From: a virus
Taxonomy: Duplodnaviria > Heunggongvirae > Uroviricota > Caudoviricetes
Strand: one strand, 5' to 3'
IMG/VR virus record: IMGVR_UViG_2698536341_000008
Length of the DNA: 7,411 nt
Of the stretch, positions 1 through 7,154 are shown in pieces. Position 1 is the first letter of the stretch; every line of letters begins with the position of its first letter. Under the pieces are notes generated by a model, which ran no database searches, was not told the origin of the DNA, and saw only the letters and a program-made list of their open reading frames with translations. Position numbers and translations under genes: made by a program.

Positions 1-251
1 CCCCGTCAGTAGCTGAACAGGAGGGACAGCTGATAGAAACAGAAGCCACTGGAGCACCTCAAAAACACCATCATACACTAAATCAGTAAGTTGGCAGCAT
101 CACCGCTACATTCAATAGAATTCTGGACGGTTTTGATATCTCTGATGAAGTTACGCCAAAGAACCTTAAATTTAAAAATAAATATTGCGTATCATCTATT
201 GATGATGAGTAAACAACAGGAATTGTTTCGGTATAACTTCTGGAGTTTTCT

Positions 252-1769: not shown

Positions 1770-2294
1770 TTACGACTCAGTTAACTCTTTAAAGCGTTCC
1801 ATAAACATCCCATAGGCATGGCCTGGCGACAGTGGAATAACTTTGAACATCTCTGTTGCCGGGATACCTTCCAGTACAGGCCAGAAAGAGCCATCATCAA
1901 GCCCGAGATCGCGGCGTTCGGTTGCCAGCATGATGAGATCGGCATATTTCACAGGCGTGCTCATAACCGTGGGTAACCCGTATTTCTCACGGATTACGGC
2001 GTCTATTTTTTCTTCCATCCGTTTATAGTCAGGAAGAAGACGTTTCAGCGGCGTGGGGATGTCCTGGCAATACGCTTCTGTTGCATCATGCATTAACGCT
2101 TCAAAAGCAAATTCCTGCGGCACCAGCTGGCTGCAAAGCACCGCATGTTGGGCGACACTGTAGAAGTGTGAAAGATGACCGGCAAAGCGACAGATATTTG
2201 AAAGGGAAACCGCGATATCGTTAATCACGATGTCGTCTTTATTTATCCTGTCATAATAAAAATGCTTCCCGGAAAAAGTTTTAATAAATGACAT
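1770..2294 (-). CDS. HD-domain phosphohydrolase, YfdR-like 5'-deoxynucleotidase family (prophage-encoded)
   Basis: HD signature ...FEALMHDATEAY... plus upstream His-containing motif (RFAGHLSHFYSVAQHAV). ATG 2294 (MSFIKTF...) has GGAG 6 nt upstream; track start 2324 is GTG, 10 codons further up. Family recalled from memory. Confidence 0.7.
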   Translation of the reverse strand: MSFIKTFSGKHFYYDRINKDDIVINDIAVSLSNICRFAGHLSHFYSVAQHAVLCSQLVPQEFAFEALMHDATEAYCQDIPTPLKRLLPDYKRMEEKIDAVIREKYGLPTVMSTPVKYADLIMLATERRDLGLDDGSFWPVLEGIPATEMFKVIPLSPGHAYGMFMERFKELTES

Positions 2295-2387
2295 TTTGTT
2301 CTCCGCGTATATGTGCTGCACCACGCTGAATTCTGGTAAAAGGAAGCCCTCACCATCCGGCGATTATTGAGTCAATTACGTTTCCAT

Positions 2388-2409
2388 AAATGCCCCCGCA
2401 GGGGCATTT
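2388..2409. other. Perfect 9-bp hairpin (AAATGCCCC-CGCA-GGGGCATTT) in the intergenic region, no adjacent U-tract
   Basis: Inverted repeat read directly: 2388-2396 pairs with 2401-2409, 4-nt loop. No T-run on either strand, so not a canonical terminator; possible processing or protein-binding site. Confidence 0.4.
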
Positions 2410-2421
2410 GCAGTAATGAAA

Positions 2422-3246
2422 TCAGGCGGTGAAAGTACCAATAAAGGTTTCTACTTTGCTGTCTTTGAATTTCTCAACAAGCAGATCACGAAATTCGTTA
2501 GCCATTTCTTCCTGCACCGCCTCCAGCTGAATAATGCGCAGAACCAGTACAGGACGATCGCCAGTGATAATGCTGAGGCGTAATTTAAATGGACGTTCTT
2601 TCAGACCTTCAAACGGAACGCATTTAAATTCAAATGCCACTGGCATAATATCTTTGGTTTTCGCTTCGACAGACTCCATCAGGGAGCGTTTGCCGCTGAA
2701 GTCATTATCTTCAAAATCAGCGGTCTGGTTTGCTTCAATCGTGATTTTACGGACAGCCGCAGCCGCTTTTGTTGCCTGAATAGCGTCACCATTAGCATCA
2801 AAGCCCACAAGGTAGTCGGCCCAGTCTTCAATCCATTCTGCCAGTGACTTCTGGGAATGACGCTCGCCATTAACAGACAACAGAGCAGAGAACGGTGCTG
2901 TCTTTTTCAGTTTGAGAGTGGCAGTGTTATCTGCGTGACCTGGCTCATCAATAGTACCCAGGTTAAGCACACTGACGGCACGCATATTATCGGCATCGAT
3001 AAAGCAGCGGGTGCCTTCATCTGCAAGATCTTTAGAATAACGAGTAAAGTCATCGATGCTGGCAGTGGAAAGCGCACCACGGAAACGGAAACGATTTAAA
3101 TTAAATTTTTCCAGATCATGAATGCGGAAATTCTCAGGCAATGCCACAGCATCGGCACCAATCTTACTGATAATTTCATTAACACCCTGAGCAGAAATAA
3201 GGGCATGGATTTGATTAATTGCGGTTGCGTCTAAGTTCTGAGACAT
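2422..3246 (-). CDS. DUF2303-family prophage protein, YfdQ-like (274 aa)
   Basis: Uninterrupted 274-aa ORF; ATG 3246 with GAGGA 6 nt upstream. Length and sequence resemble my memory of E. coli prophage protein YfdQ; function unknown. Confidence 0.65.
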
Positions 3247-3311
3247 AATAAGTCCTCACTATATAAAAATATTCAGTGATGAGAGAAATAATCAGTTTAT
3301 TAAAAACGATA

Positions 3312-3674
3312 TTAATGACCTGCTGCGCGGAGTTTTCCGTCAGGTTCACCGGCAAGAGTCAGTAATTGTCCCTGGTCTTCCTGCAGAATAGTCAGGCGAC
3401 CACCGCGATTGACATACATCGGCGTTTCGGTGGTGTCTTCTTCGGAAATTTTCCCGCGGTTAGTCGGGCGAACATATGAGAGTTTGTGTTTGATTTTCAC
3501 ACGGTTCTCATCAAATGGTTCGATTTCCAGGTTGAGCGAGACCTTACCTTTGGTTTTCGTATTCATCACACCGGAAGCGACTTCACTGAGAACAGCGCCG
3601 ATTTTGGTTTCAAATACGCCGCCGTCCAGCTCCCCGATAAATGCCTGCACATCAGTACTGCGTTCGCTAGCCAT
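3312..3674 (-). CDS. Hypothetical prophage early protein, 120 aa (first gene of the leftward operon; YfdP-like size and position)
   Basis: ATG 3674 (MASERSTDVQAFIGELDGGVFETKIG...) with GAGGAG at 3682-3687 and a 7-nt spacer. The ORF-track extension to 3860 adds a Cys/Arg/Gly-rich, non-protein-like N-terminus with no RBS and is treated as leader. Confidence 0.7.
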   Translation of the reverse strand: MASERSTDVQAFIGELDGGVFETKIGAVLSEVASGVMNTKTKGKVSLNLEIEPFDENRVKIKHKLSYVRPTNRGKISEEDTTETPMYVNRGGRLTILQEDQGQLLTLAGEPDGKLRAAGH

Positions 3675-3722
3675 TTTGCTGCTCCTCATCATATCGACCC
3701 TGCAAGGTCGGTTGGTTTCTCC

Positions 3723-3811
3723 ACAAAACAGAGAAGAACACCTGCGGTGGCAGCCGCCCGGATGGATTGGGTTATGAGCCCGTCGGCCGGTGATGCTCTT
3801 CTCTGTTTTGT
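3723..3811. repeat. 15-bp perfect inverted repeat (ACAAAACAGAGAAGA ... TCTTCTCTGTTTTGT) forming a long stem with a 59-nt structured loop
   Basis: Read directly: 3723-3737 is the exact reverse complement of 3797-3811. Lies immediately downstream (minus-strand sense) of the leader terminator U-tract and about 35 nt upstream of the RBS of the 120-aa gene. Confidence 0.8.
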
Positions 3812-3857
3812 AAAAAGAGCGGTACCAGCCGGAAGCAAGTGTACAAACTGGTACCGC
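3811..3857 (-). terminator. Candidate intrinsic terminator inside the early-left leader (10-bp GC-rich stem GCGGTACCAG/CTGGTACCGC followed by UCUUUUUA on the minus strand)
   Basis: Perfect 10-bp inverted repeat 3819-3828 / 3848-3857 with a 19-nt loop; plus-strand A-run 3811-3818 gives the U-tract on the minus-strand transcript. The loop is longer than in typical terminators, so efficiency is uncertain. Confidence 0.5.
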
Positions 3858-4288
3858 CAAAGCAGTGGCTGTTGTGGTGACCGGTGCTGATCTCCGGCTT
3901 GCGGTTATTTCAGACTCTCACGGGCGTTTAATTGCCCCGCCGAACAGCTCTTTTCCGCAATAGCTGCAATGTCTTTCGCGCATCAGCCTGCGCATTCACC
4001 ACAACGCTGAGAGCACTTAGCCAGTTACGGCACCACACTTTGTCGCGGTTCCATAAATGCCCTCATCGTTGCACCCTGGTCTCTTCCCAGGTGTCAAACC
4101 GAACCGCCACGCTGGTTAGGCGTCTTATCAGCATCATCATTGACTTGCACATTCCGGCTACCTGGTTTGTTTGCTCGAGCAAGGAGTGGATTGTCCCCTT
4201 TAACGTCCCCAGACCGCTAACGACGCATGTGCCATACGCCGTGTTACAACCAAATTTTGTTAGTACCTTGTTTGTTTGTCTGGAAAGA

Positions 4289-4341
4289 AAGATAAAATGA
4301 AGTTGCGCATTATGCAAGTGTTTTTATTGCGAGATATGCAA
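4289..4341 (-). promoter_or_regulatory. pL-like early-left promoter with two operator-like 15-bp sites (OL)
   Basis: Two copies of TTGCG-N5-(A/T)GCAA-type imperfect palindromes at 4303-4317 (TTGCGCATTATGCAA) and 4327-4341 (TTGCGAGATATGCAA), matching a site in the cI-cro intergenic region (5110-5124). On the minus strand: -35 TTGCAT (4312-4317), 17-nt spacer, -10 TATCTT (4289-4294). Confidence 0.45.
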
Positions 4342-4354
4342 TTTAAAGGGTAAT

Positions 4355-4376
4355 GAAAAGCCACCTTTGGGTGGCT
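4355..4376 (-). terminator. Intrinsic terminator downstream of the repressor gene
   Basis: Stem AGCCACC (4359-4365) / GGTGGCT (4370-4376), loop of 4 nt, followed on the minus strand by UUUUC (plus A-run 4355-4358); 20 nt past the repressor stop codon. Confidence 0.6.
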
Positions 4377-4396
4377 AATTGATGAGGAGGTAAGGG

Positions 4397-5089
4397 TTAA
4401 TTGTGTCGCTTAAGGGTTTGTGACTGGCTGATTAAGACCTTTCCAAAGACCATAAACCGGTGTTCATTTTCGCTGGTAATTCCCCATTCACGGTAAATCT
4501 GGTTATCAGAAATCACCAGTAGTTTGTCAGGTATCATTTGCAGTCGTTTGACATAAATTTTATCATCAAAACCAAATACATAGATACCATCTCCATCAAA
4601 CTGATTGATACTGACATCAACGAAGATGAGATCTCCTGGCTCAATGGTTGGACACATACTGTCCCCACGAACGTTGATAACTTTAATGTGATTGGCTGGC
4701 CGTCCGCCAAACATCGATACAGCATTATCAGTTCTGTATTCAATGGCATGAATCACATCAATGACATCACCGCCCTGGATAAGGCCATTTCCCGCACTGG
4801 CACTGACATCCAGCATTTCAATACGGAATACATCCTTCACCTGCGCAACATCCTCACTAATACTGTTTTTAAATACAGTATTACTTTTGACGTCTGAGGT
4901 AAAGAGATCAGCAATATCAACACCTAAGCTCCTGGCAATATTACTCAGGGCTTGTTCAGTGAATTGTTTCTGCTTACCTGTTTCCAGGCGTGAGATATTC
5001 GCCGCATCCACTCCTATTGCTTCAGCGAGATCGGCGATTTTCATGTTCTTCGCCTGGCGAAGTTGTCTGACTCGGTTTCCTATGTTCAT
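4397..5089 (-). CDS. cI: CI/LexA-type prophage repressor: N-terminal XRE-family HTH plus C-terminal S24 peptidase (autocleavage) domain, 230 aa
   Basis: N-terminus IGNRVRQLRQAKNMKIADLAEAIGVDAANISRLETGK resembles 434/P22 repressor HTH. C-terminal domain carries the Ser/Lys dyad motifs GDSM (..VRGDSMCPTIEPGDLIFVD..) and ..YVKRLQ.. / ..FGKVLIS... Candidate Ala-Gly cleavage site in the linker (SASAGNG). Divergent from the cro-like gene. Confidence 0.9.
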   Translation of the reverse strand: MNIGNRVRQLRQAKNMKIADLAEAIGVDAANISRLETGKQKQFTEQALSNIARSLGVDIADLFTSDVKSNTVFKNSISEDVAQVKDVFRIEMLDVSASAGNGLIQGGDVIDVIHAIEYRTDNAVSMFGGRPANHIKVINVRGDSMCPTIEPGDLIFVDVSINQFDGDGIYVFGFDDKIYVKRLQMIPDKLLVISDNQIYREWGITSENEHRFMVFGKVLISQSQTLKRHN

Positions 5090-5186
5090 GCGTTTATTAC
5101 ATTTCTTTATTGCGCGTTAAGCAAATCAACTTGCGCAAAATATTTGCGTGAAATAATATGCTCATCACGCAATATGTGGAGGTAAT
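5090..5186. promoter_or_regulatory. Divergent PRM/PR-like promoter-operator region between repressor and cro-like gene
   Basis: Operator-like site TTGCGCGTTAAGCAA at 5110-5124 plus TTGCG repeats at 5131-5135 and 5144-5148. Candidate PR: -35 TTGCGC (5131-5136), 17-nt spacer, -10 TAATAT (5154-5159). GGAGG (5178-5182) precedes the cro ATG. No Shine-Dalgarno precedes the repressor ATG. Confidence 0.6.
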
Positions 5187-5447
5187 ATGCAATCACCATT
5201 ACGGAATGTGCGTAAGACGCACGGATTTACTTTGCAGCATGTTGCTGCTGGCGTTCAGGTCAATCCAGCGACGCTGAGTCGTATTGAAAGACTGGAACAA
5301 ATTCCATCTATCGATCTTGCAGAACGTCTGGCCAATTTTTTTAAGGGTGAAATCAGCGAAATGCAGATTCTTTATCCGGCACGTTTTCAATCTAGCCAAA
5401 ACCAGAATGGGTTTAAACCACAGGAACAGGAGGTAAGCCGTGGGTAA
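5187..5447 (+). CDS. cro: Cro-like XRE-family HTH regulator (86 aa)
   Basis: HTH segment FTLQHVAAGVQVNPATLSRIERLEQ; GGAGG 4 nt upstream of ATG; divergent from the repressor; 3' end overlaps the next gene start by 8 nt. Confidence 0.8.
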   Translation: MQSPLRNVRKTHGFTLQHVAAGVQVNPATLSRIERLEQIPSIDLAERLANFFKGEISEMQILYPARFQSSQNQNGFKPQEQEVSRG

Positions 5448-5997
5448 TCATAACTGGAAAGTGGAAAAACAGCCTGAGTGGTACGTGAAAGCTGTCAGAA
5501 AAACTATCGCGGCGTTGCCGGAGGGTTACGCTGAAGCTGCTGAGTGGCTGGATGTAACAGAGAACGCATTATTTAACCGCCTTCGTGCCGATGGCGATCA
5601 GATTTTCCCGCTGGGATGGGCAATGATTTTACAACGTGCTGGTGGCACTCACTTCATTGCTGACGCTGTGGCGCAGTCTGCAAATGGCGTCTTTGTGTCT
5701 CTTCCTGACGTCGAGGATGTGGACAATGCCGATATTAACCAGCGTTTACTGGAAGTCATTGAACAGATCGGCAGTTATTCAAAACAGATTCGTTCAGCAA
5801 TCGAAGACGGTGTAGTGGAACCGCATGAGAAGACAGCAATTAACGACGAACTGTATCTTTCAATTTCGAAGCTCCAGGAGCATGCAGCACTGGTCTACAA
5901 AATCTTCTGCGCTCCAGAAAATAGTAACGCCCGCGAGTGTGCAGCTCCGGGCGTCGTGGCGTCGATTGCTTCTGGTTGTGGAGAAACTAACGCATGA
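5440..5997 (+). CDS. CII-position regulatory protein (185 aa) with HTH-like segment; function inferred from position only
   Basis: GTG start 5440 preceded by AGGAGG (5428-5433) with a 6-nt spacer; translationally coupled to cro upstream and to the next gene downstream (ATGA overlap at 5994-5997). HTH-like stretch AEAAEWLDVTENALFNRL. Family not confidently recognised. Confidence 0.6.
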   Translation: MGNHNWKVEKQPEWYVKAVRKTIAALPEGYAEAAEWLDVTENALFNRLRADGDQIFPLGWAMILQRAGGTHFIADAVAQSANGVFVSLPDVEDVDNADINQRLLEVIEQIGSYSKQIRSAIEDGVVEPHEKTAINDELYLSISKLQEHAALVYKIFCAPENSNARECAAPGVVASIASGCGETNA

Positions 5998-7154
5998 ATA
6001 GTTTAACGGCAAATAACCGTTTGTCGCAACAGCTGGTGGTCAGCGTCGCTGAACACCTGTTGTTACGGCATGAATGCAGATTACCAAATCACCTGGCTGT
6101 AAGTAACCACAGAGAACTTTACCTGACTGTGGGGGGCGAGTTGTGCAGGAACTTAACCGCTGGTTTCGTGACGGAAGAGGGCTTTATGTCCATGTTATTC
6201 GTTGGGAGCCAGAAACACAGCGCGTTATCTATCTTCGCAAAGACTACCCGCATGAGTGCTTTAGTCCTTTGTGGAAATTCAGGCGTGATTTTGTTGAGTG
6301 TGAAGGACCACCAGCATATTGATTCTGCAATTCCGGGACGTTACACTGCTCAGGCACCTTATAAAGCGGGTGCCGGGATTGGCGTCCTGAAATTGTCAAC
6401 GGCGATGTATGACGCGCCAGCGTCTTTTTTATCGTCCGCATTTGCTCACATCCAGATTATGGTGGGCTGGGCGGGGGCACCGAAAGGTGCGCCGGTCTCC
6501 GTTGACGCCGGTTACGCCAACCCCGTCCAGTTCACCACCAGTGAAATTGGCGTTTCCGGTGGTGGAAGTTTTTCACTGTCAACGGAGGCTGCCATCATGG
6601 CTACGATCCCAGCCCTCACTCAACCTGAAATCACCATTGACAACGGCCAGGCCGTTACCACTTCTTTGGCTGTTGCCAACTTCTTCTCCAAGCGTCACGA
6701 CGATGTGCTGAAAAAGATCCGCACTCTGGATTGTTCCCCAGAGTTTTGTGCCCGCAATTTTGCGGAGACATCGATTTCGGTAAATCAACCGAACGGTGGT
6801 ACACGCAAGCTCCCTTGCTATCAAATCACACGAGACGGTTTTGCGTTTCTTGCTATGGGTTTCACGGGTAAACGTGCTGCCCGGTTCAAAGAGGCATACA
6901 TAAATGCCTTTAACCAGATGGAGAAACAGCTTTCAAAGCCCGCTGTACCGAGCGACGTTGCACATAACGCCAGCGTTCTCTGTTCCTACATTTCATCAAT
7001 TCATCAGGTCTGGCTGCAGCAGCTTTATCCTATGTTGGCAAAAGCCGAATCTCCGCTGGCTGTTAGCTTATATGACTATATTAATGATGCTTCGGCGCTG
7101 GCCTGTCTCATAAATTTGTCGCTGAACCCTTCAGAGGTAAGGGGGCGCAAATGA
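5994..7154 (+). CDS. Rha-family phage regulatory protein (Rha domain in residues ~202-310) with an unusual ~200-aa N-terminal extension; alternative start at ATG 6597 would give a 186-aa Rha-only protein
   Basis: Rha signature as I recall it: TQPEITIDNGQAVTTSLAVANFFSKRHDDVLKKIRTLDCSPEF...YQITRDGFAFLAMGFTGKRAARFKEAYINAFNQME. ATG 5994 overlaps the upstream stop (ATGA). Frame 0 stays open with strong G-first periodicity over 6323-6596. A near-perfect internal RBS (GGAGG 6584-6588, 8-nt spacer) precedes Met-202 exactly at the Rha domain start. Confidence 0.6.
   Translation: MNSLTANNRLSQQLVVSVAEHLLLRHECRLPNHLAVSNHRELYLTVGGELCRNLTAGFVTEEGFMSMLFVGSQKHSALSIFAKTTRMSALVLCGNSGVILLSVKDHQHIDSAIPGRYTAQAPYKAGAGIGVLKLSTAMYDAPASFLSSAFAHIQIMVGWAGAPKGAPVSVDAGYANPVQFTTSEIGVSGGGSFSLSTEAAIMATIPALTQPEITIDNGQAVTTSLAVANFFSKRHDDVLKKIRTLDCSPEFCARNFAETSISVNQPNGGTRKLPCYQITRDGFAFLAMGFTGKRAARFKEAYINAFNQMEKQLSKPAVPSDVAHNASVLCSYISSIHQVWLQQLYPMLAKAESPLAVSLYDYINDASALACLINLSLNPSEVRGRK

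Follow-up and report, generated by a model that had tools for sequence, protein, structure and literature searches.

The immunity region

The DNA analysed here, a stretch of 7411 bp from the IMG/VR virus record IMGVR_UViG_2698536341_000008 (in the following called the window), is the early region of a lambdoid prophage. Its immunity switch is of the type carried by SfII, mEp460, 1720a-02 and ST64B. In brief, a cI-type repressor gene and a cro-type gene are transcribed divergently from a 97 bp intergenic region, and a CII gene lies beyond cro (Table 1). The DNA of the immunity region is 96-99% identical to that of PhiR63_1, mEp460, phiSTEC1575-Stx2k, 1720a-02 and Stx2a_1447/WGPS2, and 91% identical to that of SfII.

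We suggest, with a probability of roughly 0.85, that a family of 15 bp palindromes on both sides of cI are the binding sites of the prophage repressor and Cro, which would control the early promoters through them in a lambda-style switch. This reading is based on sequence comparison. The gene content, which is that of a textbook immunity region, supports it: a terminator follows cI, whose product has helix-turn-helix (HTH) and S24 domains, and both a CII (CP76) gene and a divergent gene for an HTH Cro are present.

Table 1. Features of the immunity region and their positions in the window. Ranks are those in the position weight matrix (PWM) scan of the window.
Feature	Position	Strand	Sequence	Remarks
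cI-type repressor, 230 aa	4397-5089	-	helix 3 AANISRLETGKQ	N-terminal HTH, C-terminal S24 domain
Cro-type HTH protein, 86 aa	5187-5447	+	helix 3 PATLSRIERLEQ	divergent from cI; helix 3 includes Arg32
CII (CP76/YmfL-type) gene	5440-5997			3' of cro
cI intrinsic terminator hairpin	4376-4359	-		directly before OL2 and OL1 in the sense of transcription
Immunity-specific mosaic segment	4262-5411			PL/OL, cI, OR and most of cro
OL1	4303-4317		TTGCGCATTATGCAA on +; TTGCATAATGCGCAA in cI/PL sense	rank 1
OL2	4327-4341		TTGCGAGATATGCAA	rank 2; 24 bp centre-to-centre upstream of OL1
OR3	5110-5124		TTGCGCGTTAAGCAA	rank 3; cI-proximal, overlaps putative PRM -35
OR2	5131-5145		TTGCGCAA at 5131-5138	TTGCGC doubles as putative PR -35
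OR1	5158-5172		ATGCTCATCACGCAA on +; TTGCGTGATGAGCAT in cI sense	rank 4; cro-proximal, over end of putative PR -10 and predicted start
Candidate fourth right-hand operator	5208-5222		GTGCGTAAGACGCAC	cro codons 8-12; 50 bp centre-to-centre from OR1
Putative PL	-35, 4317-4312; -10, 4294-4289	-	TTGCAT, TATCTT	17 bp spacer; start near 4282
Putative PR	-35, 5131-5136; -10, 5154-5159	+	TTGCGC, TAATAT	17 bp spacer; predicted start approximately 5166
Putative PRM	-35, 5124-5119; -10, 5101-5096	-	TTGCTT, TGTAAT	17 bp spacer

Identification of the operators

A reading of the window by itself (the original prediction) had named three near-identical 15-mers as operators of the cI/Cro pair with an OL/OR-like arrangement, two of them just past the repressor terminator and one between cI and cro. 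All three, OL1, OL2 and OR3 in Table 1, were found at the positions given, the left pair behind the terminator hairpin and OR3 in the intergenic region. Annotations of SfII and Ayreon also place a terminator at the position of this hairpin. The pattern proposed, TTGCG-N5-WGCAA, occurs three times in the window against 0.08 expected, and none of 200 shuffles reached three in this post hoc test. When all 4-mer dyads with gaps of 1-12 were counted in the window, TTGC-N7-GCAA was the joint most frequent class. It should be noted that 59 of 100 shuffles hold some 4-mer dyad class with at least three copies, so that the count is not significant family-wise. Copy number within the window is for this reason weak evidence, and we used a PWM built from orthologs and a test of invariance instead.

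Orthologs were collected by a tblastn search with the repressor against phage genomes and by a scan of species-representative genomes. The former include ST64B, Klebsiella Kp4871-1, Citrobacter phiNP, Eeyore and Cronobacter ENT47670, with repressors 83%, 71%, 69%, 67% and 50% identical to that of the window, respectively. The latter added loci from Shigella, three Citrobacter, Pseudescherichia, Klebsiella spallanzanii, Trabulsiella and Buttiauxella. The resulting comparison set has 16 loci with repressors 50-99% identical, from the genera Escherichia, Shigella, Salmonella, Klebsiella, Citrobacter, Cronobacter, Trabulsiella, Buttiauxella and Pseudescherichia.

All 16 loci carry 15 bp dyads at constant offsets before the cI ATG (-83/-84, -56/-57 and -35/-36), and in every locus the centre-to-centre spacing is 21 bp from OR3 to OR2 and 27 bp from OR2 to OR1. 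Both OL sites are found in 14 of the 16, approximately 55 and 78 nt past the cI stop and just after the terminator. In 13 orthologous loci a site in the position of OL1, its N5 being variable, is found behind the terminator of cI, and the position of OL2 is conserved 22-24 bp from it. The consensus of the ortholog sites is TTGC(G/A)-N5-CGCA(A/T). Information is concentrated in the outer four bases of each half-site (TTGC and CGCA, 1.5-2.0 bits), with 0.5-0.9 bits in the centre and 0-0.4 in the flanks.

The PWM was trained on 25 sites, exclusively from orthologs with a repressor at most 83% identical, leaving out the window's own group. In the window its four highest scores were OL1 (20.1), OL2 (18.1), OR3 (16.0) and OR1 (14.7), all above the 95th percentile of the maximum in shuffled windows (13.3; median 8.2). 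Since a matrix from distant orthologs ranks these four at the top, we conclude that the three sites proposed are real and that a fourth of the same kind had been overlooked. The single intergenic site of the original prediction therefore stands as OR3, and the list was incomplete, as it lacked OR1, the TTGCGCAA of OR2 and the candidate site in cro. No third OL site was found in the PWM scan of the window. Weak matches in the Rha gene, at 6958-6972 (12.3) and 6841-6855 (9.4), are below the shuffle threshold. We also rejected ATGCGTTTATTACAT (5088-5102, over the cI start), which scores 7.9 and is not conserved in Kp4871-1.

For the test of invariance, 80 close IMG/VR relatives were pooled with the loci of identical geometry, giving 31 distinct control regions of 97 nt. 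Unvaried positions make up 23 of 24 in the operator cores and 15 of 73 elsewhere (Fisher p = 2.7e-11), and the OR2 octamer TTGCGCAA does not vary in any of the 31. The deviations of individual site classes from the consensus are kept as well: OR1 ends in GCAT in all, and OR3 begins with TTGC(A/T) in nearly all. In lambda, such site-specific deviations set the differing affinities for repressor and Cro. By analogy, those of OR1 and OR3 may set affinities here. The motif search over homologous prophages that had been named as a check of the original prediction thus finds the motif beside orthologous repressors in at least nine genera, in agreement with the OL/OR assignment.

Putative promoters and the start of cI

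We place a promoter at each of three operators. The promoter-proximal six bases of OL1 would be the -35 of PL; in eight divergent orthologs, checked by hand, the same place holds a TTGC(A/G)N hexamer followed after 17 bp by a TAT-type hexamer. The last two bases of the putative PR -10 are the first two of OR1, and TAAYAT is found at equal spacing in the orthologs. The putative PRM -10, TGTAAT, is unvaried in the 31 control regions and lies 6-7 nt from the ATG in 15 of the 16 loci; ENT47670 has TTGAAT. A consensus promoter scanner made one cI-directed call, TCCACA-N16-TATTAT (5180-5153), which we rejected because the orthologs do not share it and it runs across the ribosome-binding site of cro.

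In the window TGTAAT ends 6 nt before the cI ATG and there is no Shine-Dalgarno sequence, and we therefore predict that the cI mRNA is leaderless, starting with the A of the ATG (5089). The repressor is annotated from the internal Met16 in mEp460 (locus 3199-3846) and phiNP (locus 1546-2196), so that the first HTH helix is lost. The longer, leaderless form is indicated by the conservation of the N-terminus and by TGTAAT, which lies 6-7 nt before the first ATG.

The repressor and Cro

Both hallmarks of a CI-type repressor, an N-terminal HTH and an S24 domain with an Ala-Gly cleavage site and a Ser/Lys dyad, are present in the predicted protein. It matches Pfam families Peptidase_S24 (6e-19) and HTH_3 (1e-10), with HTH_3, HTH_26 and HTH_31 covering residues 3-64. 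The predicted self-cleavage residues Ala98-Gly99, Ser143 (GDSM) and Lys180 (VKRLQ) are unvaried in 10 orthologs. Across residues 19-228 it is 44% identical to HK022 CI. Cro matches HTH_3 (4e-9).

The recognition helix of the repressor, xAN(I/V)SR(L/V)ETGKQK, is nearly constant among the orthologs that have the common operator consensus. The outlier is ENT47670, with the helix GNLSRLERGMQG and sites of the form ATGCG-N5-CGCAT instead. Helix 3 of both cI and Cro contains S-R-(L/I)-E; we did not find an alignment between the cI N-terminal domain and Cro with BLASTP.

Proposed switch

In the switch we propose, a dimeric repressor with an HTH and an S24 domain, the latter predicted to be cleavable in the SOS response, would bind the 15 bp dyads with the consensus TTGCG-N5-CGCAA, and the divergently encoded Cro would bind the same operators. 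Because the half-site TTGC is also the putative -35 of PL, PR and PRM, binding would compete directly with RNA polymerase, and occupancy of OL1, OR2 or OR3 would exclude sigma region 4. On the left, OL1 would cover the PL -35 and spacer, with OL2 24 bp upstream. On the right, OR1 would cover the end of the PR -10 and the start, the OR2 half-site the PR -35, and OR3 the -35 of the leaderless PRM. The conserved palindrome in cro probably adds a downstream site. Binding by the repressor, the promoter positions, cooperativity and the order in which sites are filled are inferences, as is looping between OL and OR, which we propose by analogy with HK022 CI.

A preprint on phage 1720a-02 and Citrobacter phage phiNP treats the same system and gives one predicted Cro site per control region. 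Compared with 1720a-02, 225 of 230 cI residues and 82 of 86 Cro residues of the window are identical, and there are 3 differences in the 97 positions of the control region. AlphaFold3 models place a 1720a-02 Cro dimer on a 20 bp site, 20-39 bp upstream of cI and the lysogenic operon, and in phiNP on a site 12 bp upstream of cro; Cro Arg32 is modelled on guanines of the OR3-equivalent site (bioRxiv 10.1101/2025.01.01.630987). In reporter assays and quantitative PCR, 1720a-02 Cro represses the phiNP lytic promoter and phiNP induction, the reporter being driven by the phiNP cI-cro control region, and phiNP co-resides with 1720a-02 (bioRxiv 10.1101/2025.01.01.630987). The Cro site modelled for 1720a-02 corresponds to OR3 of the present map, and that of phiNP to phiNP OR1. 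These results support the operator assignment.

Alternative explanations

Several observations weigh against the switch as proposed. The Cro sites of the preprint are themselves AlphaFold3 predictions. OR2 is only a half-site in the window's group, where the second half reads AAATA in the cI sense; as a full 15 bp site it scores 8-9 of 10 in the Kp4871-1, phiNP, Eeyore, Buttiauxella, C. amalonaticus and Pseudescherichia loci. Its distance from the PRM start also exceeds that in lambda by approximately 7 bp, so that activation of PRM cannot be taken for granted. The PWM score of OR3 is higher than that of OR1, the reverse of the order in lambda, and would imply early self-repression if score tracks affinity. 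Finally, the consensus promoter scanner called none of PL, PR and PRM, and their match to the sigma-70 consensus is only 7-8 of 12; we place them despite this because the hexamers are conserved at the canonical 17 bp spacing in divergent orthologs.

The TTGC words might be merely conserved -35 elements, or chance palindromes, and not operators. The putative PL, PR and PRM do each use a TTGC half-site as -35, and three copies of some 4-mer dyad class turn up in 59% of shuffles, as noted above. What this explanation leaves unaccounted for is the conservation of the second half-sites (CGCAA/GCAT) at the exact 5 bp spacing. Furthermore, OL2 and OR1 are not -35 elements, the matrix from other genera recovers the same four sites, and the contrast between core and non-core positions is strong. 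We consider it extremely unlikely. Recognition of the sites solely by Cro, or by a host factor, with the S24 repressor using another motif, appears very unlikely too. Cro is the only one of the two proteins with experimental or modelling support, which comes from the preprint, and the failure of BLASTP to align it with the cI N-terminal domain would agree with separate motifs. Against this, the sites lie on both sides of the repressor gene, including an OL that Cro alone would not need, and these intergenic regions hold no further repeated dyad that is conserved. The S-R-(L/I)-E motif is common to the two helices, and in ENT47670 the operator consensus co-varies with the repressor helix. Operators shared by repressor and Cro are the reading we retain.

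A candidate operator within cro

The odds that the palindrome at cro codons 8-12 is a further operator are, on the sequence comparison, about even. A full consensus site, TTGCGAAAATCGCAA, is found at these codons in phiNP and Eeyore. Among 31 distinct cro 5' ends, codons 8 and 11 hold the only invariant third positions within codons 2-25, and the amino acids encoded there vary (L/M/V and A/E/S/T, respectively). The Arg codon 9 is CGN in every sequence, and the Arg codon 6 mixes CGR and AGR. The fixed third positions of codons 8 and 11 together with the constant CGN point to selection on the DNA word TGCG-N5-CGCA. We tentatively propose, at slightly less than even odds, that this widespread switch keeps a fifth operator inside cro under selection on synonymous and even non-synonymous codon choice. 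If so, the site could be a downstream clamp or roadblock for PR, an anti-virulence element resembling OFR of HK022, or a shared site for cross-regulation among co-resident prophages.

A competing account, somewhat doubtful and still to be taken seriously, is that the palindrome forms a hairpin in the cro mRNA, or that it results from conservation of the peptide (L/V)RK(S/T/A)(H/Q). The PWM score in the window, 9.1, is close to the shuffle median of 8.2 and not significant alone, which counts against an operator; the site was flagged as a hairpin in the scan of the window, and the bases at its two ends, G and C, hardly ever occur there in the intergenic operators. Against this account, the fixed bases are third-codon positions under changing amino acids (exactly those two among 24 codons would be hit by chance in 1 of 276 cases), and CGN is constant at codon 9 as against the mixed CGR/AGR at codon 6. 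ST64B and Kp4871-1 have T at both ends, which disrupts the RNA pair and yet fits an operator of the OR1 type.

Comparison with lambda, HK022 and earlier work

As in lambda, cI and cro are divergent and share dyad operators, several on each side of cI, over PL, PR and PRM. The 97 bp region holds OR1, OR2 (as a half-site) and OR3, and beyond the repressor gene a second cluster of OL1 and OL2 lies at the putative leftward promoter. Further likenesses are an S24 repressor predicted to be SOS-cleavable and the predicted leaderless cI mRNA, as at lambda PRM. We did not find the lambda arrangement of three operators per side with a PRM-activating OR2; OL has two sites here and not three, and OR2 is degenerate. 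The operators differ in length (15 bp, 5-N5-5, against 17 bp in lambda), OL and OR are approximately 850 bp apart without rex genes between them, and Cro is of the HTH_3 (P22/434-like) type and not of the lambda Cro fold. There is no N gene; an untranslated PL leader of approximately 600 nt takes its place.

HK022 resembles the window in the C-terminal domain of its repressor, in a short immunity region (OL to OR approximately 700 bp) and in the 5-N5-5 geometry, its control regions containing dyads like TGAAC-N5-GTTCA as read from its sequence (HK022 locus 1825-1920 and 2615-2760). The N-terminal DNA-binding domain and the half-site sequence differ. A passage in PMC8053113, citing Carlson and Little 1993, reports that HK022 has an additional operator, downstream of OR, with a part in immunity, and the same passage has HK022 CI looping OL to OR. 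That extra operator is approximately 300 bp downstream of OR, whereas the candidate of the window is 50 bp from OR1 and inside cro.

The switch adds no new principle to lambda-type switches, and its features are only mildly unusual: a half-site that serves as the -35 of three promoters, a degenerate OR2 and a probable intragenic site. In the literature that we searched, the operator 15-mers are not printed in any paper, and the SfII, SfIV and ST64B papers that we checked do not describe these operators. The switch was partly anticipated by the preprint (bioRxiv 10.1101/2025.01.01.630987), which does not give a consensus, the OL sites, OR1 and OR2 of 1720a-02, repressor binding or the intragenic site. 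The full operator map extends it.

Immunity segment and specificity

Aligning the window with the heteroimmune phage Ayreon gave 95% identity over 1775-4261 and 90% over 5412-6621, with unrelated sequence between. Since Ayreon matches both flanks and nothing in the middle, the exchangeable segment is 4262-5411. All mapped operator sites fall within it. The pattern TTGC-N7-GCAW has no match in the heteroimmune Ayreon and PhiR34_1 loci and 2-9 matches in every orthologous locus. The operators are thus found to travel with the repressor as one exchangeable module.

The original prediction further held that the motif defines immunity specificity, which we can follow in part. The motif does lie in the swapped segment and is absent from heteroimmune loci, but all ten half-site bases are common to phiNP, whose repressor is 69% identical. 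As phiNP shares the half-sites, co-resides with 1720a-02 and is cross-repressed by its Cro, the half-site consensus marks a family of related specificities and not one immunity group. Finer specificity, if any, must reside in the central bases, the flanks, the spacing or cooperativity.

The immunity segment is present in 1041 of 5426 complete E. coli genomes, or approximately one fifth. In some of the complete genomes the module is present two or three times at 90% identity or more, which is unexpected for strictly homoimmune phages. This observation fits closely related but distinct specificities, or defective prophages. The module is also found in the Shiga toxin 2 (Stx2) converting phages 1720a-02, Stx2a_1447, Stx2a_WGPS2 and phiSTEC1575-Stx2k. 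RefSeq labels its genes only 'XRE family transcriptional regulator' and 'helix-turn-helix domain-containing protein'. The operator map gives a sequence basis for the Cro-mediated interference between 1720a-02 and phiNP. It could be used to predict homoimmune or cross-regulated resident prophages, to guide reporter and induction studies of Stx phages, and to correct annotated start codons of the repressor.

The palindrome in the PL leader and sRNA-17

A further palindrome, TTGCTCGAGCAA (4171-4182), had been put forward as an auxiliary site, and this proposal we do not uphold. It has the same outer words TTGC and GCAA and lies approximately 105 nt downstream of the putative PL start, as an operator in the leader might. 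These two words are 4 bp apart and not 7 as in the operators, and the palindrome has further points against it: it is outside the immunity segment and not among the PWM matches, and it is perfect in the window alone. The equivalent is an imperfect TTGCCCGAGCAA in homoimmune mEp460 (repressor 99% identical) and likewise in heteroimmune Ayreon, and homoimmune SfII lacks the whole segment around it. It also falls within a fragment used as the 'promoter of sRNA-17' (PMC7719688). We give an operator at this position next to no credence.

The published small RNA (sRNA) sRNA-17 of E. coli K1 RS218 is modulated by ArcA (PMC7719688). We placed it on the window by its published primers; all of these and the Northern probe map exactly to 3813-4006 on the negative strand (PMC7719688), which makes sRNA-17 part of the untranslated PL leader. 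It begins approximately 275 nt downstream of the putative PL start and ends at a hairpin with a U-run. The 'promoter' fragment corresponds to 4006-4255 and so includes the palindrome at 4171-4182.

At 3858-3812 on the negative strand the leader has a 10 bp GC hairpin followed by CUCUUUUU, which looks like an intrinsic terminator. On its 3' side is a long hairpin of approximately 25 bp, into which the U-run can pair (the whole element spans approximately 3711-3858, negative strand). The long hairpin is conserved at 81-96% identity in SfII, ST64B, phiNP, Eeyore and Citrobacter prophages, among which it shows a few compensatory changes and an insert that varies. The phages that share it have no N gene. 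Antitermination and RNase III processing are possible roles of the element. An Rfam search gave no match for the PL leader. Antisense to the leader and sRNA-17 is a 122-aa open reading frame (ORF) at 3932-4300 on the positive strand, a hypothetical protein in mEp460, which is probably not a gene.

Other features of the window

Left of cI, the approximately 600 nt without a credible ORF are followed by a 120-aa gene, a DUF2303 (YfdQ-like) gene and an HD-domain (YfdR-like) gene. A 288-aa ORF at 795-1661 on the negative strand has 30% GC, against 44.5% for the window, and a weak Pfam match to SieB (superinfection exclusion). It resembles a moron and may serve in exclusion or defence.

Window positions 1-104 are the end of an IS1 element, 100% identical to plasmid copies annotated as IS1 family transposase. 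This sequence is present approximately 10 times per E. coli genome. The exact junction between IS1 and prophage was found in none of the complete E. coli genomes of the collection, the match stopping at base 105.

On the right, Rfam identifies isrK (62 bits, 6354-6430) and the C4 antisense RNA (81 bits, 6455-6542) on the positive strand, just 5' of a Rha-family gene (6597-7154). In the annotation of mEp460, the equivalent of 5994-7154 is a single 383-aa 'Rha' coding sequence that spans the isrK and C4 RNA genes, and this long form is probably wrong. The layout of isrK, C4 and Rha resembles P1 immI or the isrK module of Gifsy-1.

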